Positions 14,622 through 49,825 of a stretch of 64,000 nt of DNA are shown here, in pieces. This DNA is from Synechococcus sp. (GTDB lineage: Bacteria; Cyanobacteriota; Cyanobacteriia; PCC-6307; Cyanobiaceae). The DNA is taken from NCBI GenBank assembly GCA_047284725.1, contig JBJBEO010000001.1, positions 64,001 to 128,000 of the forward strand, read 5' to 3'. Position numbers and translations under genes: made by a program. The stretch's first letter is position 1. Each line of letters opens with the position of its first letter. The notes below the pieces were generated by a model. The model searched no databases and was not told the origin of the DNA. It saw nothing but the letters and a program-made list of their open reading frames with translations.

Positions 14622-15791
14622 ATGATTTTGCCGATGAAATCGTTCGGGAAAATGTTGAGGTCAAGCCATGCTTTCCCTTGGTCTTTGACTTGTCTTTCGC
14701 TCAGCCTTTTGTTCGTTGGTTGTCGTCCTCAAGCGCAAGCTCCCCAGTCTTTGCCGCTGTATGCAGATGCGATTGTTAAGAAAGACTTTCGGCAGGTGGT
14801 GAATGCTGAAGGGATGATAGGAAATAATAATTATGTTCCCTTTAGGCCCTCACAAAGTGGCATTGTCACCCAAGTTTTGGTGAAGGCCGGCCAAAAGGTC
14901 AAGAAGGGCCAGGTCATGTTTGTTTTGGAACATGAGTCGCAACGTGCCGCACTTGATACCGCGAAGGCTAAAGCTCAGGAGGCAAAGATTGAAGCCTCTC
15001 GCTATCAGTTCTTGTACGCTGCCGGGGCGGCCACTCTCGAAGAAGCGGAACAGTACAGGATTACGGCCATCGCTCGACACAATGAATCGATCGATAAAAG
15101 AGTTCAATTGAGTCATCGATCCATCAAGGCACCTTTTGATGGTGTGATTGGAACTAATTTTGTTGTTAATGTCGGAACTTATATTCAATCAGGTGACATC
15201 TTGGGGGGGCTTGTTAATAACGATGAGCTTTTTGTTCAAATGAATGTCCCGGCAGCTCAGGCAGCATCCATTCAATTGGGTCAGGTTGTTCGGATTTATT
15301 CGGGAGGCTCGGATCGATCTATTGCCGAAGGACAAGTTGATTATGTAGCACCGTACTTTGATTCTGGCTCTGATGGTACTTCCCCTACCAATACATTAAC
15401 GGTTCAAGCCTCGTTTCCAAATGTCCAGGCAGGTCTGAAGCCTGGTGAGGTGTTGCGTTCTGAAATTCAAACGGGAGTTCGCCACCTGCCGGCAATTCCC
15501 ACGGCTGCAATCACCATGAAGGCTCAGCAAGCCTTTGTTTTCAAACTGGTTCCTGTTACCACCTTTCTTCGGTTGAACAATCTCGATGAAAAACAAAGCC
15601 AACCTCTCAAAGCATTGCCTTCTGAGTCGTTAATCGCTATGGAATCGCCTGTGACTTTAGGCGAGCTTCAGGAGAATCAATTCCCAGTCCTGAAAGGATT
15701 GGCGCCTGGCGATCAGGTGGCCATTAGCCAGACAAAAGTCTTGTTTACTGGAATGCCAGTGACAATTCTCCCTGATCTACCCTCCAACTAA
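14622..15791 (+). CDS. RND efflux periplasmic adaptor (membrane fusion protein), probable lipoprotein
   Basis: LLFVGC lipobox, lipoyl-like VKAGQKVKKGQ, IKAPFDGVIG and GLAPGDQV. Exact start uncertain. Confidence 0.88.
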   Translation: MILPMKSFGKMLRSSHAFPWSLTCLSLSLLFVGCRPQAQAPQSLPLYADAIVKKDFRQVVNAEGMIGNNNYVPFRPSQSGIVTQVLVKAGQKVKKGQVMFVLEHESQRAALDTAKAKAQEAKIEASRYQFLYAAGAATLEEAEQYRITAIARHNESIDKRVQLSHRSIKAPFDGVIGTNFVVNVGTYIQSGDILGGLVNNDELFVQMNVPAAQAASIQLGQVVRIYSGGSDRSIAEGQVDYVAPYFDSGSDGTSPTNTLTVQASFPNVQAGLKPGEVLRSEIQTGVRHLPAIPTAAITMKAQQAFVFKLVPVTTFLRLNNLDEKQSQPLKALPSESLIAMESPVTLGELQENQFPVLKGLAPGDQVAISQTKVLFTGMPVTILPDLPSN

Positions 15792-15795
15792 TCTG

Positions 15796-18700
15796 ATGTC
15801 GTTTGCAGATCCCTTTATCAAAAGGCCCGTCCTCACGAGTGTCTGCAGCATTGCTATTTTTATTGCCGGATTGGTTGTTGTCTCAGATCTGCCAATCGAA
15901 TTCGTGCCTGATGTTGCACCATCTCAGATCCGGATTTCTGCTGCTTTTCCTGGTGGTAATGCCAGCATCGTTGAGAAATCAGTGACGGATCAGCTGGAGG
16001 ATTTGCTTTCTGATACTCCAGGTGTTGATTATTTAGTATCAAATTCCACTGCAACTTCAAGTACGATACAGCTGTATTTAGAGCCAGGAATATCTGCAGA
16101 CACGGCTATGTTGGATGCGCAAAATCGCATTCAACAAGGGATTCAAAACCTGCCCCAGGCGACAAAGGATCAGGGTGTGAGTATTAGCCAGTCAACTGAC
16201 ACCACGCTCAGCAGCTATATGCTTACATCTGATCAAGGGCAATACAATTCGGCTTATCTGTCGTCGTTAATTGAGGGCAATCTAAAAAAACAGATTCAGC
16301 TGATTAATGGTGTTGGCACAGTCAGAATTTACCCTTCGGATTCCCGATTTCAGGTGTTTTTAGATCCTGATCTTCTGAAGTCCTACGATATTACAAGTGA
16401 AGAAGTTGCTCAGCGAATCCGATCACAAAATTTTCCCTCATCCGCTGGCAACGTCGGAGCATCCCTTCTCGGTGACGAAGCCTCCTACACGTATCCAGTC
16501 CTGGTGAAGGACGGTGGCTATATTCAGACCGTTGAGGAATTTGAAAATCTTGCGGTGAGAACGGCTCCTTCCGGAGCCCTGATCCGTGTGAAAGATATTG
16601 GCAAGGTTGAGTACATTGCAAGCCCGTCGGTCTCTCTGAAAACTCTGGATGGTTATCCAGCAAGCTTTATAGTCATCAATCAAAAATCAGGTAGTAATGC
16701 TGTGCAGGTGGCCAGCGATGTTGAGGAAGTGATTGCCGACTTTGAAAAAATTGCACCGCCTGGGATTCGAGTTTCACAGTTTGACGATAAAAAGTCCTTT
16801 GTGAATGAATCGATTGAAAACGTCTCCGACGCCCTCGGGCTGGCTGTCGTTTTGGTGTTGGTGACACTGTTGTTGTTTCTGAAAAATTGGCGAACAGTTC
16901 TGATCCCGGCTTTGGCTATTCCAGTGGCCATCGTGGGGACTTTTCTGTTCTTAGGCCTCTTTGGTTTCAGTCTGAACTTTCTCACTCTGACAGGTCTTGT
17001 TCTGGCGACAGGTTTAGTGGTTGATGATGCAATTCTTGTTGTTGAGTCGGTTTCTAAAAAGATCGAAGAGGGCATGCCCCCCAGGCAAGCTGCGTTGTCA
17101 ACAATGAATGAGCTTTCTGGTGCCGTTGTCTCAACATCACTTGTTTTAATCACGTTGTTTGTTCCAGTCACTTTGGTCGCTTCATCAGTTGGAAAAATTT
17201 ATCAGCAGTTTGCCATTACGATTATGGCTGCAATCGCAATTTCAACGTTTAATGCTTTAACATTTTCGCCAATGATGGCGGCCTTGATGCTCAGGTCGGG
17301 AAGTCAAATCAAACTATCTCGATGGCTGTCTGGCGCGGGTGGCTTGCTGACGGGTGCATTGTTTGGAGTGTTTACGCGTTCAAATTTTGGTGATTTGATT
17401 GTGCCAATTGCGATCGGTTTCTTTGGGGTTCTGGGGTTTTGTCTCGCCCAAGTGTTCCAGGTTTTTGAGTCCGGTTACACTGCTTTTGCGGTGAAATTTG
17501 CAGGTATTTCGAGTTTTTTGATTCGCAAAAATCGGCTTGTTACGGCTTGTTTGCTGCCAGCTTTCATCGTTACGATTGCTTTATTTGGTTCAATTCCTTC
17601 GGCTTTAATTCCCCAAGAAGACCAAAGTATTTTGACGGGTGGGACGCAGTTAGCCTCAGGTGCATCCCTCATGGAAACGGCCAAGGTTGCTGCCCAGGCA
17701 TCTTCTCTTTTGAGGCAAAAGCAGCAGTCGAAAGACTCTGCAATCAAGGATGCAGTGGTCATTGCAGGCCTTGGAGGTGCTGAACAATTGGGTTTTTATG
17801 CTTCGCTGAAGCCGCTTGAGGAGAGGCCCAATCCTTCGCAGGCTGCTGATGCACAGCAAAGAGCTCTCGGTGCGACCTTGTTGCCTCTCCCTACGGCACG
17901 CCCCGCATCTTTTTATCAGCCGCCAATGATCAATGTTGCGGCCAATACTCAGATTTCCATGTTGCTTGTTGACAAGAGCAACCGTGCATACACATTTGAA
18001 GAATTGAATGAATTTGCACGGCGCTTTCAAGAGTCGGCTCAGCGTGATCCTTTGATTGCCAGTATTTATACAATCTTTGCTCCGGATGCTCCTGCGTATG
18101 AGTTAACGGTCAATCGCTCGAAGCTTTCGTCTTTAGGTGTTGATTTCAATAAGGCGACGAGGGCATTGGCGGAGCTTGCCGGTGGCAGCAGGGTGAATCA
18201 AACCTCAATTCCTGGTGGTGTGAGAGATGTGCAACTGATTAGTGATTCAAGGGGAAGGCTCGACATCGATGATCTTCTGGATTACTCCGTGCGCTCAGCC
18301 AATGGCACTATGGTGAAAGTGAGGCAATTTACGGATGCTGAACTAATCAGTGCTCCTTCATCCATTGAGCATTTCAGCTTTAACCGCTCGGTTCGCTTCA
18401 TGATTCAGCCCGCACCTGGTGTCTCGCAGGGGCAGGTGATCGATCGCCTTGCTCAATTGTTCGCTGAGAATAACTTCAAGGATCTTGGCTATGCCTTTGA
18501 TGGTTTGGCCCGCACACAGGTTGAGTCTGGCGGGCAGGTCTTGATGCTGTTCGCCTTGGCTGGCCTGGCAGTGTTCTTTATTCTTTCGGCAACCTATGAG
18601 AGCTACATCACCGCCACGACAATTTTGCTCACAGCGCCTCTTGCCATCTTGGGAAGTCTGTTGTTTGTGAAAATGAGGGCAATGAATATCAATTTATTTT

Positions 18701-19062
18701 CACAAGTGGGATTGCTGATGCTGATTGGACTGGCGGCTAAAAACGCCATTCTTGTGGTGGAAATGGCGGATCAGGGCATGGCTCAAGGTTTGCAGGCAGC
18801 ACCAGCAGCGCTCCAGGCAGCTCAATCGAGACTGCGTCCGATCCTGATGACGTCCACGGCCTCTTTGGCTGGTTTCTTCCCTCTGGTGGTCGCAAGGAAT
18901 GCCGGAGCGAATGCGCAGCAATCGATCGGAACCGTTGTGTTCGGCGGTCTTCTCGTTGGAACGATCCTTTCCTTGGCTGTTGTTCCGTCTGTTTATGTGT
19001 TCATTAAAAATTGGGAGTCTCGTTGGTTCAACGCGCGTCGTGCCGCCAAGCCATCCTTGTGA
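15796..19062 (+). CDS. RND efflux permease, AcrB/HAE1 family
   Basis: FIKRP N-terminus; proton-relay motifs GLVVDDAILVVE, GLAAKNAILVVE and RLRPILMT are intact. Confidence 0.93.
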   Translation: MSFADPFIKRPVLTSVCSIAIFIAGLVVVSDLPIEFVPDVAPSQIRISAAFPGGNASIVEKSVTDQLEDLLSDTPGVDYLVSNSTATSSTIQLYLEPGISADTAMLDAQNRIQQGIQNLPQATKDQGVSISQSTDTTLSSYMLTSDQGQYNSAYLSSLIEGNLKKQIQLINGVGTVRIYPSDSRFQVFLDPDLLKSYDITSEEVAQRIRSQNFPSSAGNVGASLLGDEASYTYPVLVKDGGYIQTVEEFENLAVRTAPSGALIRVKDIGKVEYIASPSVSLKTLDGYPASFIVINQKSGSNAVQVASDVEEVIADFEKIAPPGIRVSQFDDKKSFVNESIENVSDALGLAVVLVLVTLLLFLKNWRTVLIPALAIPVAIVGTFLFLGLFGFSLNFLTLTGLVLATGLVVDDAILVVESVSKKIEEGMPPRQAALSTMNELSGAVVSTSLVLITLFVPVTLVASSVGKIYQQFAITIMAAIAISTFNALTFSPMMAALMLRSGSQIKLSRWLSGAGGLLTGALFGVFTRSNFGDLIVPIAIGFFGVLGFCLAQVFQVFESGYTAFAVKFAGISSFLIRKNRLVTACLLPAFIVTIALFGSIPSALIPQEDQSILTGGTQLASGASLMETAKVAAQASSLLRQKQQSKDSAIKDAVVIAGLGGAEQLGFYASLKPLEERPNPSQAADAQQRALGATLLPLPTARPASFYQPPMINVAANTQISMLLVDKSNRAYTFEELNEFARRFQESAQRDPLIASIYTIFAPDAPAYELTVNRSKLSSLGVDFNKATRALAELAGGSRVNQTSIPGGVRDVQLISDSRGRLDIDDLLDYSVRSANGTMVKVRQFTDAELISAPSSIEHFSFNRSVRFMIQPAPGVSQGQVIDRLAQLFAENNFKDLGYAFDGLARTQVESGGQVLMLFALAGLAVFFILSATYESYITATTILLTAPLAILGSLLFVKMRAMNINLFSQVGLLMLIGLAAKNAILVVEMADQGMAQGLQAAPAALQAAQSRLRPILMTSTASLAGFFPLVVARNAGANAQQSIGTVVFGGLLVGTILSLAVVPSVYVFIKNWESRWFNARRAAKPSL

Positions 19063-25168: not shown

Positions 25169-25272
25169 GGGCTTCTCAAGGGCATCTGGGCTCAGTCTGT
25201 CGTGGTGGCACTACGGCAGGCAGATGGATGGCTTTTGAATAGGAGGTGTGGTTCGTCTTGCCTTCAGCTTCG

Positions 25273-26508
25273 ATGGCGCAATCTGTTCGCTGGACTCCCA
25301 TCGGTGGGGGCATCACCGCTCCTGACGGCTTTCAGGCGGAGGGGCTGACCGCAGGGCTCAAGGCCTCAGGGAAACCCGATTTATCGCTCCTGCTCGCTCC
25401 TGAAGGCGCTGTGTGCGCCGGCACGTTCACCACATCGGTGGTGAGGGCGGCGTGTGTTGATCTCTGTGCAGACCGGTTGCGGGACAGCGGCGGGCTGGCG
25501 CGGGCTGTGGTGACCAATTCCGGACAGGCCAATGCCTGCACGGGCGATCGAGGCCTCATCGACAGCCTGCGGGCGACGCAGGCCGTGGCGGATCGTCTGG
25601 GCCTCCCACCGGAAGCGGTGTTGATCTGTTCCACAGGAGTGATTGGTGTGCCGATTGCCATGGACACCCTTCTGGCGGCTGTGGATCCATTGGTGGAGGG
25701 CCTTGCAACGGACCGAGGTGCTGCAGCTGCAGAGGCCATCCTCACCACTGATCTGGTTGACAAACAGATCGCCCTGGAGGCCGAGTTGGCAGGGCGCAGG
25801 GTCCGTGTGGCCGGGATGGCCAAGGGATCGGGAATGATTCATCCCGACATGGCCACGATGTTGGGCTACCTCACCTGTGATGTCGGCGTGCCTGCGGAGG
25901 TGTGGCAAGCGATGGTGAGCCGGGCGGTGAATCGCTCGTTCAACGCGATCACCGTCGACGGTGATACCAGCACGAACGACACGTTTCTGGCTTTTGCGGC
26001 AGGCGATCCTCTACCAGACACGGCGTTGGAAGGGCTTGAGCAAGGGGTCACGCTTGTGGCTCAACATCTGGCGCGGGCGATCGCCCGCGATGGTGAGGGT
26101 GCAACCTGTTTGATTGAGGTGGACGTGGAGGGGACGGCCAGTGAGTCCGATGCGTTGCAGATGGCACGCACTGTGTGTGGTTCCTCCTTGGTGAAGACCG
26201 CTGTTCATGGTCATGACCCCAACTGGGGGCGCATTGTTGCGGCGGCCGGTCGCGCCGGTGTGCCCTTTGACCCTGCTTCCGTTGCCCTGTGGCTTGGCAC
26301 CCATCAGCTGATGGCCTCAGGCGAGCCCATGGTGTTTGACCGATCCGCCGCCTCGGCGTACCTGCAGGCTTGCGTTGAAGGGGCCTATCTCGAGAATGAC
26401 TGCGTTTGTATTCGTCTCAAGGTGGGTGATGGCCCTGGTCGGGCCAAAGCCTGGGGATGTGATCTTTCGGATCAATATGTGCGCATCAACGCCGATTACA
26501 CCACTTGA
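25273..26508 (+). CDS. argJ: Bifunctional ornithine acetyltransferase/N-acetylglutamate synthase
   Basis: GMAKGSGMIHPDMATML, DGDTSTND, DGEGAT and the C-terminal YVRINADYTT. Confidence 0.97.
   Translation: MAQSVRWTPIGGGITAPDGFQAEGLTAGLKASGKPDLSLLLAPEGAVCAGTFTTSVVRAACVDLCADRLRDSGGLARAVVTNSGQANACTGDRGLIDSLRATQAVADRLGLPPEAVLICSTGVIGVPIAMDTLLAAVDPLVEGLATDRGAAAAEAILTTDLVDKQIALEAELAGRRVRVAGMAKGSGMIHPDMATMLGYLTCDVGVPAEVWQAMVSRAVNRSFNAITVDGDTSTNDTFLAFAAGDPLPDTALEGLEQGVTLVAQHLARAIARDGEGATCLIEVDVEGTASESDALQMARTVCGSSLVKTAVHGHDPNWGRIVAAAGRAGVPFDPASVALWLGTHQLMASGEPMVFDRSAASAYLQACVEGAYLENDCVCIRLKVGDGPGRAKAWGCDLSDQYVRINADYTT
26484..26501 (+). repeat. Left att-like direct repeat (inside the argJ 3' end)
   Basis: CATCAACGCCGATTACAC; 17/18 identical to 31009-31026. 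Confidence 0.75.
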
Positions 26509-27642
26509 GGTCCACGTCGTCAGTAGAGCGTTGTGGTTGCGAGAGGGTTGAGAGATTGTCAGAGGGCACATGTAGGGCTGATTGTTCCAGGTGCCTAACG
26601 TAATTTGAGGTATTACGATTCAGTTGATTGGCACAAATGGGTGCAGTGAATGCTCTTTTCAAGGGCTAAGTAGCATGAAAATGCCAGATAGGGTGCTTCC
26701 CTTTTCTTGAGAGGAGGTTGGTTTAATGCTTTGCCTTGATAAGGCAGATAAGAATCGTAAGGAGTGTGGCTGCGGGCACGGATGCGTCAGCGTGAAAGAC
26801 CTTGATGTTTGTGAGATTGGTATCTTTGCGGTGATGCTTATCTTGTGATTGCTCAGCTGCTTTCTGCGCTCTCTCCCAAGGATGTTGATCGGTTTGATTG
26901 CATGTTTCATTAAGCAATGTGCTGATGTTGATCCAGCATCTGTTGTCGATGACGACGGCCACTCCAGGTTGATTGGTCACACACCTGCTGATCTAAAATG
27001 GTGCTGCAAAGGTAAATACAATTACGTAATTCTTGAAGAGTAGAGAAGATGCAAGTGGCTGATCTTCTAGCACTTGTCGAGTTGTCTATGAAGCAGGAAA
27101 ACCAGGAAACTCTGGATCTTGTTGATGACGATGCCGCCAACTTGCACGTCGGTAGATTTCCGATCTTTTTCTGGGCACTGCTTAAGCCACAGGTTGCTGG
27201 TGATCTCCCGATGGGTGGTCGCCGATGACTGTCCAGGTAAGTGTCAAGCAGCAATCACTGATCAAGCAGACCATCCAGAGGATGCCATTGATCACGATCT
27301 CCAACACTTCAAGAAGCATCGGTATCAGATCCGCTGACAACTCAGCGGACAAGAGCACCAACACGGCAGAAAGCGACCTGCCCACAACAGCAGCAGACGA
27401 CTACCTGACGCCTATTGAGAGGTGTCACGGCGCTGCTCTGATCTAACGCCTTCGGCAACGTCAGCAAGAGTCGTTCGAGCGGGGCATCGTTAAGGCAAGA
27501 CGCCTCTGCAACGCAGGTCGCTGAATGAGTTTTCGACGCTTCCGCTCGGTGACGAAGGACTCACTGAATCGCTGGGAGGGGAATGGGGCAGTGAAGCGAG
27601 GAGAGAAGTCACCGTAAAATCGGTACAGGTGAGAGATGCGTT

Positions 27643-28653
27643 GTGAATCAAGAGGAGATGACGCAGCAGGTCCAGGCTGCAGTGCAGGCATATCAGGGCA
27701 AGGATCTTGATCGTGCTGAGGCAATGTTTAAGCAGATTCTTTCTGTTAACGCAAAAGAGCCGACTTCCTTACATCTTCTTGGCTGTATTTATAGTGAGCG
27801 TGGGCAACTGCAGCAGGCTGTTGAGTTCATCCAGGCATCGATTCGAGAAGATGATAGCAACCCAATGCCAATCCTCGATTTGGGGAAGATTCTTTTTATT
27901 GCTGGACAGCATGAGAATGCAGCGGCTGTCTTCCAGGAGTCATTGAAGAGAAACCAGGAGATCCCTGAGGCTTGGTTTTGCTTGGGCAATGCCCTTAAGG
28001 AGATTGTGAAAACAGAAGAAGCCAAACAGGCATATCGACATGCGTTGACATTGAATCCAGCTCATATTGGAGCCGCATCGAACTTGGGATGTCTGCTCGC
28101 CGATGATGGTGAATTGGCAGAAGCCGAGGAATTGCTTTTAAAAGCCTTGGAGCATGCTCCAAATAATGTGTATCTTAGAATTAATTATGGTAAGTTGTTG
28201 TCTGAGAAGGATCAGCATATTACAGCGATTGAGCAGTATCGTTTTGCGCTGTCGCTTGCTCCTCGTTCGTCTGAGCTGCACTACAATTTTGCTGACTCAT
28301 TGAATGAAGAGGGGGAGGTAGAGGAGGCGATCGCAAGTTATCGGAAAGCGATCGAGCTGAAGCCAGATTTTGCAGATGCGTATTTGAATTTGGGTAATGT
28401 GTTGAAAGAAGAGGGAGAGGTAGAGGAAGCGATCGTAAGTTATCGGAAAGCAATCGAACTGAGGCCAGATTTTGCAGATGCGTATCTGAATTTGGATAAT
28501 GTGTTGAAGGAAGAGGGGAAAGCGGTTGAGGCGCGCGAGCTGTTGAAATATGCCTATCAAGCTACGCCTTCTTTAGCAAGCAATCTTGCATTGGTTGCGA
28601 GGATTTCTTCTATGGGACAAGATATTGCTGAATCCATTTTCAACCCTCATTAG
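27643..28653 (+). CDS. Tetratricopeptide repeat protein (TPR-only)
   Basis: Successive 34-aa TPR units such as ADAYLNLGNVLKEEGEVEEAIVSYRKAIELRPDF. Start is GTG 27643 or ATG 27658. Confidence 0.9.
   Translation: MNQEEMTQQVQAAVQAYQGKDLDRAEAMFKQILSVNAKEPTSLHLLGCIYSERGQLQQAVEFIQASIREDDSNPMPILDLGKILFIAGQHENAAAVFQESLKRNQEIPEAWFCLGNALKEIVKTEEAKQAYRHALTLNPAHIGAASNLGCLLADDGELAEAEELLLKALEHAPNNVYLRINYGKLLSEKDQHITAIEQYRFALSLAPRSSELHYNFADSLNEEGEVEEAIASYRKAIELKPDFADAYLNLGNVLKEEGEVEEAIVSYRKAIELRPDFADAYLNLDNVLKEEGKAVEARELLKYAYQATPSLASNLALVARISSMGQDIAESIFNPH
28306..28518 (+). repeat. 102-bp tandem repeat (about 2.1 copies) encoding duplicated TPR units
   Basis: Units begin GAAGAGGG at 28306, 28408 and 28510; the two full copies are near-identical at DNA level. 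Confidence 0.9.
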
Positions 28654-29666
28654 GCATTGTGTGACGAGGTCTCTATCAAGGCTATTTCCATATCAATTGA
28701 CTTGATAAGAGCCTTTGTTGTGTCATTTAAGTGGACGCTTAATTGGCTTTTGAGTTTATTTCTTTGGGCTATGTTGGCTTGCTGTAGTGTTTGTATTATG
28801 CTTGATGTCGTGCTCTCGCTAATTCCATGCTTTTGGGTAATTGAACAGAAAAAAGCCACGGGAAGTTTCCTCGAAGTTGAGCCTAAAGGCAGCGCTGGGA
28901 TTGTAAGAGTATTTTGTTTGAGTGATATCTTTTTGTCCGTTGATTCGATTCCTTCTTGGCCGCCTTCTATTCTTATTGTTGGCCCTCTATCGCCTATCTT
29001 GATCTCTGCGGGAAGTGAATATGCGAAGAATTCATGACTTGCAAAGCCATAACTAAAAAACATGTCCATGGGGCTTGTTTTGAGTCTGTATGCATGGAGA
29101 ATTTCATTGGTTGTGCATTCTGTTGGATCGTTTGGTGTTTCTGCTCCAATTCTTGATACTTTGAAGGGGCTTGCGAATGGGCTGTGGTTGACGAGCTCCC
29201 AGATCGGTGCCAAGGCAGATTGATTTTTATATCTTACGTGCCTTGATTCTATAAATCTTTGCAGCGAAATCTGCAGGCTTGGCTTGGACATGAAGGGATC
29301 GTAAGTCCATAGCTTGTTTTCATTAAGGGAGATTTTCACTTCTTCGGGTATTTGATTCATTTCTCTGAGAAACTTTGTTGCCTCTTCTTCTCCGGATTCT
29401 CCCCAGGAAAAGTTTTGATAGTAAGTTTCTATAAACTCTCTTGCTTCTGGCGTGTGGTCGGACTCTGCTTTAAGCCGAAATTCTCCGGAAGTCAGGATGA
29501 CGTCGTCCACTTTTGCCAAAAGATGTGGTGGGCAAAGGATTCGGGGCTTGTCGTTGTTGCCTTCCCTGAATAATCCTCTGCCGTTGTCGCCATCTCGACA
29601 GATCAGATTGTCAACAATTCCGCCTAGCTTGATGAATTCATTTTTGAAATAATCCCAATTGCTCAT
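28650..29666 (-). CDS. Hypothetical protein with SET-domain (LSMT/SETD3-like) methyltransferase motifs
   Basis: Ordered motifs GDNGRGLF, ILCPPHLL, FIESR, LAPIWELVNHS, NEILHAY and MFFSYGF. Start probably ATG 29666 (MSNWDYF). Confidence 0.72.
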   Translation of the reverse strand: MSNWDYFKNEFIKLGGIVDNLICRDGDNGRGLFREGNNDKPRILCPPHLLAKVDDVILTSGEFRLKAESDHTPEAREFIETYYQNFSWGESGEEEATKFLREMNQIPEEVKISLNENKLWTYDPFMSKPSLQISLQRFIESRHVRYKNQSALAPIWELVNHSPFASPFKVSRIGAETPNDPTECTTNEILHAYRLKTSPMDMFFSYGFASHEFFAYSLPAEIKIGDRGPTIRIEGGQEGIESTDKKISLKQNTLTIPALPLGSTSRKLPVAFFCSITQKHGISESTTSSIIQTLQQANIAQRNKLKSQLSVHLNDTTKALIKSIDMEIALIETSSHNA

Positions 29667-30149
29667 CTTGTAATGCGTGCCTGCCTGGTTTGTCTGAGAG
29701 CTTATGTGAAATCGATGCCAACCTTGCTTGGTTGTCGTCACTTTGGCGCCTCGGGCGATCGGCTCTACTCTCCTCGGCAGTCAGGCATCCACGTCCGTAC
29801 CTTTGATGGTCTGATCCACGCTCGTTCTCTCGGGAAGATGGCAGCACTGGTCGTGGTACTACTCATGAGTCTTGCGAGGTTGAGACGGAGCTGATCAGGG
29901 AAAGGACGCTGGATTTTATTGCTCATCGCAAGAGCACTGGCGGATCCCTTGGGGGACGTCCCAGGACCAGTTAGCCAAGAAAAGGTCTGGTGCTTCCCTA
30001 CGGACGTCTTGTGACTCTTACAGAGTGATCCGAGAGAAGACAGGCTTGGTCTCGCCACCATCAGAAGGATCCTGTGGCGTCGGAGGCAGTGACCATTTAG
30101 GTGTCTCCTATCCAGGTTCCCTCCATCCAGTCATTGCCGATGGCTGTCT

Positions 30150-30890
30150 TCAGGCCTATGCGTTCTGTGGAGAGTTGTCAGTGGCATCCCACGCTCCAAG
30201 ACAAGCGTGATGAAGGTGTGGCTGAAGGAAGACCAGGGGAGAGTTTTCCTGAGTGGTTGTCGATCTTCCTGAGGTTGTTGAAGTCGCCTTCAGGCCACTG
30301 AGCAAGTCCTGCTTCGACCATCGCCTCGAAGTGACCATCTCTTCAAAGGTGATCGCTCAGGGGTTTCCCCGTCTTCCTGTTGGTGAAGAGCAGATTGCTC
30401 TTGGACGTGGGTTGCGTGTTCTTTCTCGGTTGACGACGGTGCGCCACGACTGGTGCTGAGAACTCATGCCAACGACCTGTCTTGGTGTTTTCCGCTGCCA
30501 CCTCGATCGACACCACACATTTTGGTCTTCAGTGCTGAGGGTTGGGTTGGCACTGACGTGTGACCACCTCATCTGACGTCGAGATCCGCATCGTGAGCTC
30601 GAGCATTTGCCTGGGCTCCAGCTGTTGCCTCGCCCGTGCCAACTGCTGATGCCTTTGCCCTTGTTGGGACCCCTGGAGATGGGGTGAAATCCCAAGGGTT
30701 TGCCGTCCTTATTGAATCTGCTGACGCCCTTGCTCCAAGACAGACCTGCTGGTGTCGAACCAGGGATGAACCGATTGGGTTTCTTCAGTGAGAAGCGATG
30801 CCTCTTGCCTCTCTTCTTATTCAGGAAGTCAAGACACCACTTGCCGTGACGCCGCCCATCTCTAAAGACATCAGCGTTGTGAGCACGCCC
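30150..30890 (-). pseudogene. Fragmented tyrosine recombinase/integrase
   Basis: Pieces across frames: CGSRRQMRWSHV (box I remnant), IEVAAENTKTGR (catalytic Lys turn, 30472-30492), LLFTNRKTGKPLS followed by an in-frame TGA at 30343-30345, and WSSFSHTFITLVLERGMPL (box II remnant with R>S, ~30180-30237). Boundaries approximate. Confidence 0.75.
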
Positions 30891-31008
30891 TCCTTGGAGG
30901 TCGCACCGATTCACAGCCTTCGTGTTGGCAGCGGCGCTTTTGCTGATACCTCTGAAGTATCGACCTGGAGGACATTGTCTCCAGCACTAGGAAACCTAGA
31001 TACGTATC

Positions 31009-31026
31009 CATCAACGTCGATTACAC
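31009..31026 (+). repeat. Right att-like direct repeat (degenerate copy of the argJ 3' end)
   Basis: CATCAACGTCGATTACAC. The surrounding 31001-31033 reads YVSINVDYTPW versus argJ YVRINADYTT*. Confidence 0.75.
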
Positions 31027-31078
31027 GCCCTGGAAATCACGAAATCCGCCAGGGCAAACCATCAGCAGAGCTGTCAAG

Positions 31079-31768
31079 ATGGCTGCGCTGTTCGATCCCG
31101 TCGCTGTACCCGTGGAGAACCAGCCCCAAGTCGAACACAAGACGAAGCGACGGCCCCAGTTCTGGATCGGTCCGGTGGTGGCCGGTAGTTGTTTCGCTCT
31201 CGGTTTTGGGGTGACGCAGCGATTCTTGGCACTCCAGGGGGGGGAGGCGCCGACGGCTCAGCAAACCTTTGGCGCCCAGCGTTTCCCTGGGCATTCGCTT
31301 GAAAGTCTCACAACGGCTCCTGCAGACACGGAGCGACCTCTGATTGCGGATGTGGCCGCCCGTGAGGCCGAGCTTGCCAAGACCCGACCACCGAAACCCA
31401 AGAAAACAATCGACAAGGCCCAGCAAGAGGCCGCGCGTCTGGCCGATGAGGCTCGACAGCGCCGCGAGAGCACCGCTGCCCTGAGAGCTCCTGTGGTGCC
31501 CGCAGCCGCGGTGACGGTGCTCGATGAGTCTGAGAGCTTGGCTGCGCCTGAACTGCCACCGCAGGCTGAGGAAGAGCAAGCACCGACTGAGATCCAGCCG
31601 CTGCCGGCAGAGCTCCCCTTCCCTGCCCAGGATCCAGTGGCCCCGTTGGCGGTCGAACCCCTTGACGAACCTCCCGTCACCCCCGCAGCACCCATCCCGG
31701 AGGTCACCTCTGCACCGATCCCGGTTCCCTTAGCCGTGCCCGCTCCAGCGGCCCCGCCTGCTCCCTGA
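31079..31768 (+). CDS. Hypothetical membrane-anchored protein with Pro/Ala/Glu-rich tail
   Basis: One TM segment (FWIGPVVAGSCFALGFGVT), a coiled-coil-like middle and a low-complexity tail; host-like GC. Confidence 0.75.
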   Translation: MAALFDPVAVPVENQPQVEHKTKRRPQFWIGPVVAGSCFALGFGVTQRFLALQGGEAPTAQQTFGAQRFPGHSLESLTTAPADTERPLIADVAAREAELAKTRPPKPKKTIDKAQQEAARLADEARQRRESTAALRAPVVPAAAVTVLDESESLAAPELPPQAEEEQAPTEIQPLPAELPFPAQDPVAPLAVEPLDEPPVTPAAPIPEVTSAPIPVPLAVPAPAAPPAP

Positions 31769-45074: not shown

Positions 45075-46709
45075 TTGACGCGGGCTGACTTTCTCGATCG
45101 CACCCCGGCGCTGGCGCGCCTGAAAGGGGTGCCTCGTGTCTTCAGTCGTCGCCATGCGGTGGTGATGGCGGTGCAAGACGACACGCTCACCCTCACCTGG
45201 ATGGAGGCTGGTGAGCGGCAGTGGCGCCGAGTGGGGATGCCGAAGGATCTCTGCCGCGATGGTCTGCCGATGCAGCGCGAGTCGCTGGGGGAGCTTTGCG
45301 CGGAGCTTCTTTTCGACAACGGTTTACCGCCAGCGTTGGTGGATCTGGAGTTGCTGTTGCCGCTGGAGGCTTGCCATTGGCGCCTCCTCGCTGGAGAGGG
45401 CGTTTCTGCGTCGTCGACCCTGGCGGATCTGCGGGGTGAGAAACCGTTGCTGGAGTGGCCATTTCAGATTGATGATGCGTACCTTGCTGCGATGCCCGCC
45501 CCCGATGGTGCGGACGCTCAGCTGTTGGTGGGTGTGCAGCGCCTGATGCTTCAGGCCTGGGTGGATGTGGTCGAGGCGGCTGATCTCTCTCTGCGTCGCG
45601 TCGATTGGCTGATGGCGTCAGCCTGGCGCGGACTGGTGGGATCCTTTGATGTGGGCATCCCTCAGGACCTGGTCTGGTTGCTCCGTGGGAGCGGTGGATG
45701 GCGTGTCTTGCTGCTCAACAACGGTTTACCCGAATTGGATCGCTTGATCCTTGACAAGGAGCTCGATCCTGCATTGAGCGAATCTAAGGGGTTGCACCAG
45801 CAGCTGGAACGAACCCTCAGCACGTGGGACGTGCAGACCACGTCAAAGGCCGGTGAGGCCAACTGGCAGCGTTACTGGTGGATCTCAGCCCGCCTGGCCG
45901 ACCAGGCCCAGTGGCTTGATTGGATGGCACGGGAGGTGCATGGGCCGATCCTTGGCGTCCCCAAGGGGGATCTGCAGCTTGAGGATGCTGACGCTCCGGA
46001 GCCTCTGATTGCGCTGGCGCTCAAGGGCAGCGCATCAATGGATCTGTTGCAGGAACGGCGACCTGAGCTTGGCCTGCCCGCTGCGACGCCGGTGGTGGAA
46101 GACAGTCGCTCGTTGTTATTGAAGGGGGCCGGCCTTGGCGGTGGCCTCGTGTTGCTTGGTTTGCTCGGCATCGGGGCGATGGCCTGGTGGGAGGGGTATC
46201 AGGCTCAACAACTGGAGGCCCTGTTGCCTGTGGAGCAGCAGGTGCTGGAAACAGAAGCCAAACTCAAGCGTCTTGAAACACGCATCACCACGATCACGAA
46301 CGACAACAAAAAGATCGCCCAGACTTTGGTGGCTGTACGTTCAAGTTCGGCGTTGATGGAGCAAATGCGTCAGATTGCTCCACAGGGAGTTCAATTCAAA
46401 GATTTGGGTGTGAAGGGAAATTCGATCAAGTTGAGCGGAGTTGTTGTCGGAGCGGGCACCCCAGGCCCTTTGGAGCGCATCAATTCTTTGCTGATCACGC
46501 TGTCTGAACTGCCGGAGAGCAAAAGCAATGGAGTCTCGCTGGTTAATGCAAGACGTACTTCAGATGGCGCGCGCGGATCAGTGAGTTTCAACCTCAATTG
46601 GACTCTTGATTCCTCGACTAAACCCACCGTGGAGCAGTTGGAGGCCTTGGGGGCCACGGGCATGGCTGCGCGTCTGCGGATGCTGGAGAAACAGGGGGTG
46701 CAATTTTGA
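45075..46709 (+). CDS. Type IV pilus/T2SS alignment protein: degenerate PilM-like N-half fused to a PilN-like C-half
   Basis: Single 544-aa frame with an internal MDLLQERR at 46038, followed by a TM segment, coiled coil and ferredoxin-like PilN domain. First gene of a pilO-pilQ-like cluster. Confidence 0.65.
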   Translation: MTRADFLDRTPALARLKGVPRVFSRRHAVVMAVQDDTLTLTWMEAGERQWRRVGMPKDLCRDGLPMQRESLGELCAELLFDNGLPPALVDLELLLPLEACHWRLLAGEGVSASSTLADLRGEKPLLEWPFQIDDAYLAAMPAPDGADAQLLVGVQRLMLQAWVDVVEAADLSLRRVDWLMASAWRGLVGSFDVGIPQDLVWLLRGSGGWRVLLLNNGLPELDRLILDKELDPALSESKGLHQQLERTLSTWDVQTTSKAGEANWQRYWWISARLADQAQWLDWMAREVHGPILGVPKGDLQLEDADAPEPLIALALKGSASMDLLQERRPELGLPAATPVVEDSRSLLLKGAGLGGGLVLLGLLGIGAMAWWEGYQAQQLEALLPVEQQVLETEAKLKRLETRITTITNDNKKIAQTLVAVRSSSALMEQMRQIAPQGVQFKDLGVKGNSIKLSGVVVGAGTPGPLERINSLLITLSELPESKSNGVSLVNARRTSDGARGSVSFNLNWTLDSSTKPTVEQLEALGATGMAARLRMLEKQGVQF

Positions 46710-47443
46710 CGAATCTCTCCGCTTCAGTTTCTGTCTGGAAGCGACGCTTCAGTCGCGAACGCGTGCTGATTGGCACCCCAGTGATTACTGGTGTCGTGGT
46801 GTTGGCCTGCTTGTTGATTTTCGATGGATGGCCGCGGGTGGGTCGTCTTCAGGAGCAGAGAGAGCGACTGCAGGAGCTGCGCCTCAAGCAGGCCTCGTTG
46901 CCTGGATTGCGACGGCAGCTGGCGAAGCAGGAAATCCGGGCCCAGCAGGTGGCCCAGCAGCAGGCCTTATTGGTGGACCTGATTGCTGGTCGTGACCAGA
47001 TTCAAACCTTTTTGGCTGAGGTGGGTCGTGTTGCCGATGCAACAGGCGTTGTGGTCAGTTTGTATGAACCTTCGGCTCCCCCTGCGCCCAAGCCCCCCAA
47101 GCCCCAGTCCCGGAGTCGATCCAGCAAATCAAAACAAAAAGACGTTCCAAAAGATCCCCTTAATGAGCTTGGTTACGTCAAAACCAGTGTGTTGCTCAAG
47201 GCGATAGGCCCCTATGAAGCATTGCAGTCGTTTTTGAGACGGATGGAGTCGTTGCAATTGCTTGTTCAGCCCAGTAATCTTGCTCTGAAATCGTCTTCTA
47301 AAGGGCAGAAGATTAAAGTCCGATCCACTGCCGTAGAATTAGAGAAGCCTAATACAGAGCTTAATTTGCGACTGAGTTTCTTCGATCGGGTCGATGGCGC
47401 TGAGCCTCAGTCCAAGGATCAGGAGCCCCAACGGCGACCTTGA
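46706..47443 (+). CDS. PilO/GspM-like protein
   Basis: N-terminal TM, coiled coil and GPYEALQSFLRRMESLQLLV; lies between the PilN-like gene and the secretin. Confidence 0.7.
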   Translation: MTNLSASVSVWKRRFSRERVLIGTPVITGVVVLACLLIFDGWPRVGRLQEQRERLQELRLKQASLPGLRRQLAKQEIRAQQVAQQQALLVDLIAGRDQIQTFLAEVGRVADATGVVVSLYEPSAPPAPKPPKPQSRSRSSKSKQKDVPKDPLNELGYVKTSVLLKAIGPYEALQSFLRRMESLQLLVQPSNLALKSSSKGQKIKVRSTAVELEKPNTELNLRLSFFDRVDGAEPQSKDQEPQRRP

Positions 47444-47524
47444 TGACCTTTGGGGCTTGGTGACAGGCGGCTAGCTATCGCTGGATTTGATCGATACCAT
47501 CCGTCTACTGCAAGTGCTCTTGGC

Positions 47525-49825
47525 ATGGCCCGATCCTCTTCCCGTCGTTTCAAGTCCCTGGCATTGGGCTTGTCTCTGGCAGTAGGAAGCACTGCGCTGG
47601 ATTGCTCGGGTCTGGTTCAGGGCGGGCGCGGTGGAGCCTTGGCGCAGAGTCAGCGTCAGCAGGGCGTGATGCAATTGCGTCTGAAGCGCCGTGCCGACGC
47701 CTTGGATGTGGTGATTGAGGGTGTGGGTGCTGAGCCCGAATTGCAGCAGCGGCTTAACGGGCTCATCTGGGAGGCCAAGCTGCGCACCCAGGGCCAACCG
47801 GGCCTGTTGCGGGGACCTCAGACACTGAGCCTGCCCGAGCTTGGCATTGAGAGTGTGTCGCTCAATGGTGGTGGCGATAGCTATCGCATTGTCATCAGTG
47901 CCATTCAAGGCCAATCCCTTGCCGACCCTGTCGTGACGGCTGATGGTCGCAATCTGATCCTTACCTTCGCTGGCCTGGGCACACCCCAACTGCAAACGAC
48001 CACGCTGGATCTCACCACGCCGGGTCGGGTGCCGCAGCCCCGCTACGCACCGCCACTGCGTCCAAGGGCCGTCGCTCCACCGCTGGGAGATATGGCCGTG
48101 GGCACGATGGTGCTGCAGAACCGCAGTTTTGTGAATGTGAGTGGTCCTCCGGTCACGCTCACGCTGAATCAAGCACCGGCGAAAGATGCCATTTTGTCGT
48201 TGGCGCGTTTGGGGAATTACGGATTCATTTATATGGGCGATGAAGGTCAGGGCACAGGAGCCAACACTGTTTCTGCTCCGGTCACCATGGCGTTCAACAA
48301 CGAAACCTACGCACGGGCTCTGAATTCTCTTCTCTTGGCGTCTGGCCTGCAGGCCAAGTTGGATGGTCGCACTCTGATGGTGGGTCCAAACGTTTCTGGT
48401 AAAACTTTTGGGCCCAAAGTTTCGAAGGTGTATCGCCTGAATCAGGCCGATGTTTCCTCTGCGGCTGATTATCTGGCCAGCCTTGGAGCTGAGATCAGCA
48501 AGGTCACAGTGCAGAGCACAACGACAGGTGAGCCGGTTGCGGGTGGTGGCTCGACATTGAGTAATCAGGTCTCACAGACCACCTCGACACTGACAGAGGT
48601 GGAAACCTACGGCGCTGCCACTGGTCCCTTGCGTGGCTTGACGGGAACGACGGATTCACGCCTGCAGTCAATCACTCTGGTGGGGGATTCGCGATTGGTG
48701 GCTGTGGCTGAAGGCTATCTCAAGCAGATTGATCTTCGCCAGAGACAGGTGGCTGTCAAAGTTCAGATTCTTAATGTGGATTTGTCAAATGACAAATCCA
48801 TTGACTCTAGTTTTTCTGCTCAAATCGGGAATACGTTCTTGGTCAGCGAGAGTGGGAGGGCTTTTGTGAATTTCGGGGATTACAAGCCCGGCGGTAGGGC
48901 TGGGACTGGGGTTGTTGAGGATGGAACTGAGTACATCCAGCCGGGAGCTTATAATGCTGGCATTGAGCAAGAGGCAGCACAAAGAGTTATTGACCCTCCA
49001 TTTGTTGAGGCTCAAGAATTCATTAACGTTACTACTTTTGATTCCAATGGCAACCGAGTTGTGACTCAGGAGCTGGTTCCAAGGTTGGATAATTTTGGTC
49101 GTCCTGAATATGTTCCAACAACAGATCCAGCCGCGTCTCCTCAGTTGGTTGAAAGGTACGATGCTAATGGTCAGCCTATTTATATTCCAGGCCAAGATCC
49201 TGCTCGGTTTAAATACCCGAAAAACTCTTTTTATGGTTACTTGGAAGCGGCAATTGTTAGTTCCAGCGCCAAGACAATTGCTCAGCCAACTCTCTTGGTC
49301 CAAGAGGGAGAGGAGGCGTCTGTAGAGACTGGTACAAGTGTGATTACTGACGTCACGACAACTGACACCGCGAACGGTTCTACCCAGTTTTCGTATTCCA
49401 GAACCAATGCTGGATTAAATCTTGAGGTTAAGGTAAATAAGATTGATGATAATGGTTTTGTCAGTCTGGAATTGAACCCTGAGGTTTCGGTTCCGGTGCC
49501 AGCGGGTACGAATCAGGGTGTTGCGATTTTCAATATTGAAGGAAGAAAATTGAGTTCAGGCAGTATTCGCCTGAGGGACAGGCAAACTCTTGTTTTGACA
49601 GGAGTGATTCAAGATTCTGATCGGGAGCAAGTACAGAAATGGCCGATCCTCGGTGATCTCCCTGTGATTGGTCAGCTCTTCAGGAGCACTGCACGTAGCA
49701 GGCAGAAAAGTGAGCTTGTGATCTTGGTGACGCCCTCGATCATTGATGATGAACAGGGTGGAACCTATGGCTACGGATATCGTCCATCCACCCGCGAGGC
49801 ACGCCAGTTGCTGGGACCGGGCTGA
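47525..49825 (+). CDS. pilQ: Secretin (PilQ/GspD family)
   Basis: N3-like DSRLQSITLVG, QIDLRQRQV and the C-terminal secretin motif TLVLTGVI...WPILGDLPVIGQLFR...ELVILVTP. Confidence 0.88.
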   Translation: MARSSSRRFKSLALGLSLAVGSTALDCSGLVQGGRGGALAQSQRQQGVMQLRLKRRADALDVVIEGVGAEPELQQRLNGLIWEAKLRTQGQPGLLRGPQTLSLPELGIESVSLNGGGDSYRIVISAIQGQSLADPVVTADGRNLILTFAGLGTPQLQTTTLDLTTPGRVPQPRYAPPLRPRAVAPPLGDMAVGTMVLQNRSFVNVSGPPVTLTLNQAPAKDAILSLARLGNYGFIYMGDEGQGTGANTVSAPVTMAFNNETYARALNSLLLASGLQAKLDGRTLMVGPNVSGKTFGPKVSKVYRLNQADVSSAADYLASLGAEISKVTVQSTTTGEPVAGGGSTLSNQVSQTTSTLTEVETYGAATGPLRGLTGTTDSRLQSITLVGDSRLVAVAEGYLKQIDLRQRQVAVKVQILNVDLSNDKSIDSSFSAQIGNTFLVSESGRAFVNFGDYKPGGRAGTGVVEDGTEYIQPGAYNAGIEQEAAQRVIDPPFVEAQEFINVTTFDSNGNRVVTQELVPRLDNFGRPEYVPTTDPAASPQLVERYDANGQPIYIPGQDPARFKYPKNSFYGYLEAAIVSSSAKTIAQPTLLVQEGEEASVETGTSVITDVTTTDTANGSTQFSYSRTNAGLNLEVKVNKIDDNGFVSLELNPEVSVPVPAGTNQGVAIFNIEGRKLSSGSIRLRDRQTLVLTGVIQDSDREQVQKWPILGDLPVIGQLFRSTARSRQKSELVILVTPSIIDDEQGGTYGYGYRPSTREARQLLGPG

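Follow-up and report, generated by a model that had tools for sequence, protein, structure and literature searches.

Which enzyme is encoded by an unnamed gene in a low-GC islet of a Synechococcus sp. genome, and which protein might guide it to its targets? We addressed this question for a stretch of 64,000 nucleotides (assembly GCA_047284725.1, contig JBJBEO010000001.1, positions 64,001 to 128,000), hereafter called the window, in which a first-pass annotation had proposed an island-borne SET-domain methyltransferase of the Rubisco LSMT/SETD3/SETD6 class. The analysis supports the assignment of the gene product as a divergent bacterial split-SET member of this class, whose cofactor site appears to be intact. 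Its most useful new result is a conserved, convergently encoded putative partner composed of tetratricopeptide repeats (TPR); gene fusions and a predicted complex with a high score back this pairing. The gene probably encodes the catalytic subunit of a split-SET, S-adenosylmethionine (SAM)-dependent protein N-methyltransferase that works with the TPR protein encoded tail-to-tail with it. The two genes are the following (lengths in amino acids, aa):

28650..29666, minus strand: SET-like gene, encoding 338 aa when read from the ATG at 29666 to the stop codon at 28650-28652
27643..28653, plus strand: TPR-only partner gene, 336 aa, matching Pfam TPR families down to E 1.6e-43

They are convergent, and their 3' ends share four nucleotides (nt; 28650-28653). 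The longest open reading frame (ORF) form of the SET-like gene (28650..29741, minus strand) would encode 363 aa from an in-frame GTG at 29741 that adds 25 residues. The start at ATG 29666 is favoured, since seven of 14 relatives are 338 aa long and most of them begin there in an alignment of 15 sequences (A1).

The SET-like protein had no match in Pfam, NCBIfam, PADLOC or PHROGs. The sole Pfam signal, DUF2019 (E 0.23), failed its own cut-off and was rejected. A reading as a defence-system or phage gene was dropped because the enzyme matched no PADLOC and no PHROGs family; the TPR partner hit generic TPR models only in these two collections. A word-indexed protein search yielded 14 relatives with 49-92% identity, all metagenomic and none with a Pfam domain or a descriptive name. 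The A1 profile was then compared with 1.84 billion cluster representatives and retrieved 365 at E<=1e-3, 258 at E<=1e-10 and 65 at E<=1e-30. The family accordingly comprises 365 clusters at 50% identity, with most members measuring 320-360 aa. Names were available for five of 24 relatives, in each case 'hypothetical protein', as the first-pass annotation had expected, and none of the 24 carried a Pfam domain. The window protein therefore belongs to a large unnamed bacterial family and is not a one-off import from eukaryotes. For a wider Pfam scan, the 115 near-full-length or longer sequences among the best 150 of the 365 were taken (32 fragments and three sequences already held were dropped). 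A second alignment (A2) comprised 123 sequences, namely the window protein, 10 of the 14 first relatives and 112 representatives; P0003, P0008, the fragments P0014 and P0015 and three long fusions were left out.

At a mean column identity of 22%, A2 retained G29 in 112, G31 in 121, R142 in 122, P154 in 118, N160 in 122, H161 in 120, E188 in 120, Y193 in 121 and F208 in 115 of the 123 sequences; F33 and L158 likewise belong to the positions kept in at least 90%. Retained across 123 members at such low identity, the quoted motifs are not a product of chance. N298 (28773-28775, minus strand) alone was invariant across all 123 sequences; it belongs to a C-terminal-domain helix that is remote from the SET motifs along the chain. 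One metagenome protein of 695 aa (P0032) proved to be a tandem of two full modules, which cover A2 profile positions 3-338 and 3-340. Judged by eye, the first of them looks degenerate at the positions of the NH, Tyr and YGF motifs, and P0032 may be a pseudoenzyme-enzyme pair.

The assignment to a class rests on a comparison of sequence profiles and a comparison of folds. Against 177,635 distinct PDB sequences, the A2 profile gave eight matches at E<=10. The top five were pea Rubisco LSMT (two constructs, E 0.0017), pTAC14 (0.029), SETD6 (0.13) and a pTAC14-like protein (0.16); the remaining three (E 0.22-1.3) were unrelated proteins. In the alignment of the family with LSMT, ksRai paired with RSRAF, vlmPilELvNHs with VVVPMADLINHS, Eilv-rY with QVYIQY and nygF with DYGF, and the LSMT counterpart of the PIWELVNH motif of the window protein was VPMADLINHS. 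AlphaFold2 with A2 yielded a model with a predicted local distance difference test score (pLDDT) of 94.7 and a predicted template-modelling score of 0.92, all five models reaching at least 94.3 in pLDDT. A model from a shallow alignment (pLDDT 71) gave identical top matches in the fold search. Foldseek comparison of the A2 model with 350,542 PDB chains gave 36 matches with E<=1e-3, the strongest at 3.3e-7 (probability 1.00), and the best 28 of these 36 were all Rubisco LSMT, SETD3, SETD6 or pTAC14/PAP7 of the plastid RNA polymerase. SMYD2 entered only from E 1.1e-3, and a viral fold library gave no match at E<=1e-3, its best being a mimivirus SET protein at E 1.1e-3. Language-model look-alikes, which we treat as a lead only, consisted first of unnamed bacterial clusters (Cyanobacteriota, Pseudomonadota) and next of clusters carrying SET, Ctm1 or Rubis-subs-bind. 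Two largely independent tests and one weaker lead thus support the LSMT/SETD3/SETD6 class, and point to nothing else. According to DSSP of the model and to the LSMT alignment, the predicted protein is organized as follows:

29472..29666, minus strand: N-terminal helix and N-terminal SET half, residues 1-65, strands within 17-65
29574-29582, minus strand: G29-R30-G31 cofactor motif
29244..29471, minus strand: helical, iSET-like insert, residues 66-141, helices 73-85, 88-104, 108-116 and 131-140
29031..29243, minus strand: C-terminal SET half, residues 142-212, strands within 144-176 and segment 188-208
29241-29243, minus strand: R142, aligned with LSMT RSRAF
29184-29207, minus strand: P154-H161 (PIWELVNH), aligned with LSMT VPMADLINHS
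29088-29105, minus strand: E188-Y193, aligned with LSMT QVYIQY
29043-29051, minus strand: Y206-G207-F208, aligned with LSMT DYGF
28653..29030, minus strand: C-terminal domain specific to the family, residues 213-338, in which three long helices (268-335) come after a small beta sheet (214-263)

The modelled protein thus combines a SET beta fold, SET cofactor and catalytic motifs and an iSET insert, and its nearest solved relatives by both sequence and fold are members of the LSMT/SETD3/SETD6 class. The C-terminal domain had no PF09273 match, and the Foldseek alignments were full-length although the template-modelling (TM) score did not exceed 0.51. The motifs listed in the first-pass annotation (FIKLGG, GDNGRGLF, ILCPPHLL, FIESR, LAPIWELVNHS, NEILHAY and MFFSYGF) all occur in the translation in that order. 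LAPIWELVNHS (residues 152-162, 29181-29213) and MFFSYGF (residues 202-208, 29043-29063) lie exactly where it had placed them, and GDNGRGLF (residues 26-33) occupies 29568-29591, a few bases away from the approximate 29561-29590 given there. An inserted helical region exists as described, but measures ~75 instead of ~100 residues, and the C-terminal domain expected at ~130 aa measures 126. The class that the annotation had named agrees with the profile search and with the Foldseek matches, and its motifs are conserved among homologs, the catalytic and cofactor residues being kept in 112-122 of 123 sequences.

How the active site might work can be read against SETD3, for which the accessible parts of the literature give a residue-level account. 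AdoMet is contacted by residues 105-106, 275-279 and 313, with the adenine lying between E104 and F327, and the iSET comprises residues 131-254 (PMC8537074). The target pocket is lined by Ile310, the conserved Tyr312 and two residues, Asn255 and Trp273, that are replaced by Phe and Ala, respectively, in both SETD6 and LSMT, and the exchange N255V lowered His activity and raised Lys activity (PMC6684798). Y312/313 and N278 were reported to be important for activity (PMC6684798, PMC6400499). Mapping of the window protein onto SETD3, which goes via the profile-LSMT alignment, gave these correspondences:

G29-G31: SETD3 104-106 loop
R142: SETD3 Arg253
V144: SETD3 Asn255 (Phe in LSMT)
W156: SETD3 Trp273 (Ala in LSMT)
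E157: SETD3 Asp274
N160-H161: SETD3 Asn277-His278
Y193: SETD3 Tyr312
F208: adenine-stacking Phe

By this mapping, the cofactor side appears intact. The predicted target pocket reads as a hybrid, since it combines a SETD3-like Trp with a hydrophobic residue at the position of the His-specifying Asn of SETD3, so that it singles out neither Lys nor His as target residue. W156 is Trp in all 15 sequences of A1 and in 27 of the 123 of A2, the others having L, I, V or M. The position of V144 is occupied in A2 by I (54), V (30) or F (20), together 104 of 123.

The conserved TPR partner, which the first-pass annotation had missed, is the best available clue to the targeting of the enzyme. We scanned one genome per GTDB species with two peptide patterns from A1; of 40 candidate stretches 10 were confirmed, giving nine loci. 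These belonged to one Synechococcus metagenome-assembled genome and eight Prochlorococcus single-cell genomes, with 28-33% identity to the window protein. In eight of the nine loci the adjacent downstream ORF encoded a TPR-only protein (172-492 aa) on the opposite strand, as it does in the window; in the ninth (L003) the contig ends 635 nt past the match. The 3' ends overlapped by 9-44 nt in seven of these eight loci, and a 19-nt gap was found in L008. The wider contexts varied and included guaA (L002, L004, L009), glycosyltransferase and amidohydrolase genes (L001) and a gene matching a Pfam photosystem II family (L008). Among the 115 family members scanned, two, P0104 and P0118, carried TPR repeats, a GT41 domain (Glyco_transf_41) and the whole SET-like module at the C-terminus. 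These fusions emerged only from the exhaustive representative search, and the word-indexed search for longer, fused forms near the window protein found none. All eight aligned partners had a non-TPR C-terminal tail after the last TPR. The tails were alike among Prochlorococcus and, separately, between the window and L001. Two features of the partner gene can be located precisely:

28570..28650, plus strand: C-terminal tail of the partner outside the TPR array, residues 310-336, the principal contact to the enzyme in the prediction
28285..28488, plus strand: tandem duplication of a 102-nt (34-aa) TPR unit within the partner gene, 85% identical

The latter suggests a recent repeat expansion. Fusions of TPR and sulfotransferase domains are encoded one gene further on from the TPR partner in L004 (9905-11542, minus strand) and L005 (4457-5641, minus strand), and two further large TPR proteins are found nearby in L007; several TPR-linked modifying enzymes thus cluster in these islands.

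A complex of the two proteins was predicted with A2 for the enzyme, with SAM included and with the TPR protein as scored partner, represented by its own alignment (A3). Three runs scored 0.86, 0.85 and 0.86, compared with 0.00 for the best of three controls. The runs shared at least 91% of contacts, and the partner reached a pLDDT of at least 90. Confident contacts of the enzyme comprised residues 147-148, 163-166, 171-172, 178-181, 192, 195-196 and 213-214 and, in part, 239-251 and 260-275, with the C-terminal domain holding most of the predicted contact surface. On the partner they fell mostly in the tail (310, 312-316, 318-319, 321-326, 329 and 333-334), together with scattered TPR residues. 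The prediction hence supports binding of the TPR protein to the enzyme, mainly via the C-terminal tail of the partner. We know of no solved complex of such a kind, and it seems unlikely that the score derives from a memorised structure. In SETD3, Pro259, Ile284, Tyr288/Leu290 and Arg316 hold the actin peptide (PMC6400499, available portion). Counted by linear offset from the motifs, without superposition, enzyme residues 147-148, 163-166, 171-172 and 195-196 would fall at these positions.

We propose that the products of the two genes form a protein methyltransferase of two subunits, of which the TPR protein would recruit the substrate or would itself be the substrate. The GxG loop, the NH motif and F208 would bind SAM between them, and V144, W156 and Y193 would line the pocket that receives the side chain of a Lys or His in the substrate protein. 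The TPR protein would dock by its C-terminal tail on the C-terminal domain of the enzyme, beside the SET substrate groove. In GT41/OGT enzymes a TPR superhelix recruits the substrate, and the TPR protein would act as a substrate-recruiting adaptor in a like manner.

A number of observations weigh against this explanation, and they bear on different parts of it. As to the SET fold itself, neither Pfam SET (PF00856) nor Rubis-subs-bind (PF09273) matched the window protein even at E<=1, none of the 115 scanned relatives matched Pfam SET at E<=0.01, and PDB searches with the single sequence (phmmer) or with the 15-sequence profile came back empty. The Foldseek superpositions were poor (query TM 0.41-0.51, rmsd, the root-mean-square deviation, 10-13 Å), which we tentatively attribute to differing domain sizes and arrangement; the class assignment therefore rests on the local 3Di+AA scoring of Foldseek and on the motif alignment. 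The missing Pfam SET matches, TM-scores of at most 0.51 and a best PDB sequence E-value of only 0.0017 would fit a protein that is not a SET protein and whose likeness in motifs and fold is spurious or arose by convergence. We give hardly any credence to this, as two largely independent methods singled out one small class among 177,635 sequences and 350,542 chains, the language-model look-alikes added their weaker lead, and the aligned residues are the functional ones. Loss of activity is another matter. Since pTAC14 chains are among the best matches by structure and by sequence, the protein might be a catalytically silent SET-like scaffold modelled on plastid pTAC14/PAP7, which is a structural part of a larger complex, and the first copy in P0032, apparently degenerate by eye, indicates that inactive copies arise in the family. 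However, 112-122 of 123 sequences keep the residues for cofactor and catalysis at 22% identity, which would be hard to explain without catalysis and makes a silent scaffold very improbable.

The remaining doubts concern the partner. The pairing was seen in picocyanobacterial loci found with patterns of the window subfamily, and the rest of the family lies outside this scope. Being convergent, the SET-like and TPR genes are not co-transcribed. The mark applied to the complex scores is reached by 116 of 157 solved complexes and by two of 215 mismatched pairs, in a calibration made without user alignments or ligand. The controls were unrelated proteins and no other TPR proteins, so that a general 'stickiness' of TPR proteins is possible. 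Interface positions were less conserved than the others (0.94 vs 1.65 bits, uncorrected for burial), also within the C-terminal domain (0.96 vs 1.39 bits), and the pocket residues 144, 156 and 193 were absent from the confident contacts. In one alternative, an active LSMT-class methyltransferase would act alone and have a TPR neighbour only since both genes ride TPR-rich variable islands. Such islands do hold many other TPR genes (the TPR-sulfotransferases of L004 and L005, the extra TPR proteins of L007), the pair forms no operon, conserved positions do not concentrate at the predicted interface and no fused forms came up close to the window protein. We nevertheless regard a lone enzyme as decidedly unlikely, because the immediate opposite-strand and mostly overlapping layout recurs in eight of nine loci at 28-33% identity and in differing contexts, TPR-GT41 fusions exist, and the complex scored 0.86 against 0.00 for the controls. 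In another reading, the TPR protein would be no adaptor, but a substrate or an autoinhibitory pseudo-substrate with its tail in the peptide groove of the enzyme. That the partner contacts are dominated by the non-TPR tail (310-334), and that the enzyme contacts would map onto the actin-peptide-binding residues of SETD3, is in line with this idea. We consider it unlikely all the same: the contacting tail has neither Lys nor His (R320 is its only basic residue, H336 being terminal), it differs between Synechococcus-type and Prochlorococcus-type partners, and both the low conservation of the interface and the missing contacts of the pocket residues speak against it.

A two-subunit enzyme with a TPR adaptor remains our preferred explanation, and it can be set against systems that are already known. 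Rubisco LSMT (PDB 1mlv, 2h21) was the best match by profile (E 0.0017) and by fold (E 3.3e-7) and has in common with the window protein a split SET interrupted by a helical insert, an additional C-terminal domain and the motifs SR, PxxD/ELxNHS, ExxxxY and YGF. It differs in that the Foldseek identity is only ~12-13%, the window protein is shorter (338 aa vs ~440 in the crystallised LSMT chains) and so is its insert, and the C-terminal domain of the window protein consists of a beta sheet and three helices and lacks a PF09273 match. To our knowledge, LSMT has no separate TPR partner. LSMT furthermore has Ala and Phe where the window protein has W156 and V144 (PMC6684798, in part). SETD3, an actin histidine N-methyltransferase, reached together with SETD6 the highest query TM (0.51), with Foldseek E-values of 4.7e-7 to 7e-6, and the window subfamily has Trp at the Trp273 position of SETD3 (PMC6684798). 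On the other hand, SETD3 is missing from the sequence-profile matches, its His-specifying Asn255/256 corresponds to V144 of the window protein, and its iSET measures 124 aa, compared with ~75 aa for the window insert (PMC8537074). SETD6 and pTAC14/PAP7 are among the top matches in sequence and fold, but these proteins belong to eukaryotes or plastids, measure 410-510 aa and have other C-terminal domains and partners.

In P0104 and P0118, as in TPR-GT41 enzymes of the OGT/SPINDLY type, a TPR array accompanies a protein-modifying catalytic domain; the GT41 fold and chemistry are different, and the window contains no GT41 domain. The SMYD lysine methyltransferases, in which a split SET works with a TPR-like domain, offer an intramolecular analogue of the proposed pairing (PMC3105404, accessible part). 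Unlike them, the window protein has no MYND zinc finger (no zf-MYND match in Pfam) and its TPR is a separate polypeptide; the fold match was weak (E>=1.1e-3, TM 0.26-0.31). Typical bacterial SET proteins are short proteins that lack the iSET insert and are recognised by Pfam SET, whereas the window family carries the insert and has no Pfam SET match. Shared with them are the SET superfamily and the occurrence in bacteria (PMC3980110, in the part available).

The SET-like gene sits in a compositionally foreign islet, in agreement with the 'island-borne' of the first-pass annotation. The islet and its surroundings are:

25246-26508, plus strand: argJ, high-GC upstream border of the islet
26509..31078, no strand: low-GC islet between argJ and the high-GC genes beginning at 31079, drawn from GC values and the named flanking genes
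26509-27642 and 29667-31078, no strand: gene-poor stretches flanking the pair, 1.1 and 1.4 kb long, GC 0.50 and 0.55

The SET-like gene has a GC content of 0.428 (0.44 at third codon positions, GC3) and the TPR gene of 0.461 (GC3 0.46), in a window with 0.609 (61%). Flanking core genes reach 0.62-0.63 (GC3 0.67-0.75), for instance 0.624 (GC3 0.67) in argJ and 0.632 (GC3 0.71) in a ubiB-like gene. Core genes upstream of the islet in the window are alaS, speA, thiO, gatB, coaE and argJ, and those downstream are the ubiB-like kinase gene and the enolase gene. Within the islet only two genes are convincing, the TPR gene and the SET-like gene. Neither a tRNA nor flanking direct or integration repeats were found at its borders. 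None of 14 ORFs scanned in the two gene-poor stretches matched Pfam, and the stretches had no Rfam match. Promoter-like sites were no commoner than in shuffled sequences (3 vs 3.5), and terminator-like sites were uninformative. The foreign composition agrees with the horizontal acquisition suggested earlier, and the gene pair would have been acquired together with the low-GC islet. The protein is no isolated, eukaryote-like import; it belongs to a broad bacterial family.

Several other regions of the window deserve mention. The high-GC border downstream of the islet is an ORF at 31079-31768 (plus strand; 229 aa, GC 0.657), Pro/Ala-rich and without Pfam or NCBIfam match. A second low-GC island (14622-19062, plus strand; GC ~0.47, GC3 0.45-0.47) lies directly 3' of alaS and codes for a periplasmic adaptor (389 aa) and a permease (1088 aa) of a resistance-nodulation-division (RND) efflux system. 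The region 45075-49825 (plus strand, GC 0.52-0.57) encodes a PilQ-like secretin of 791 aa (Pfam Secretin, Secretin_N, STN), preceded by two ORFs without Pfam match (544 and 245 aa) and followed on the opposite strand by a gene for a pentapeptide-repeat protein.

The literature offered few points of contact. In the available part of a review of bacterial SET proteins (PMC3980110), neither 'LSMT' nor 'Rubisco' occurs and an LSMT-like class is not mentioned. An island gene of the alphaproteobacterium HIMB59 is merely labelled 'SET domain' (PMC10734472, accessible part), and a paper that deals with CpcM (PMC7801250, accessible part) was set aside as not relevant. In the open-access literature we found no description of a picocyanobacterial SET enzyme or of a bacterial LSMT-like class, and no enzyme-level study of protein methylation in marine picocyanobacteria. 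The family occurs in Prochlorococcus and Synechococcus, the most abundant phototrophs of the ocean.

The LSMT/SETD3/SETD6 class is regarded as eukaryotic, and a large bacterial family without a Pfam or NCBIfam model bears on the origin of the class. The result would annotate several hundred clusters of 'hypothetical protein', and the conserved TPR partner provides a concrete and cheap entry point for experiments. A bolder version, which we consider rather unlikely, is a self-contained two-gene protein-methylation module, new for bacteria. The tail of a dedicated TPR protein would lie in the groove of an LSMT/SETD3-class SET enzyme as a substrate or pseudo-substrate gate, the TPR array would select further targets, and the W156 subfamily would possibly be a His (or other non-lysine) methyltransferase. 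If this is true, the TPR-GT41-SET fusions would point to a TPR-targeted toolkit of glycosyl-, sulfo- and methyltransferases in the variable islands of marine picocyanobacteria.

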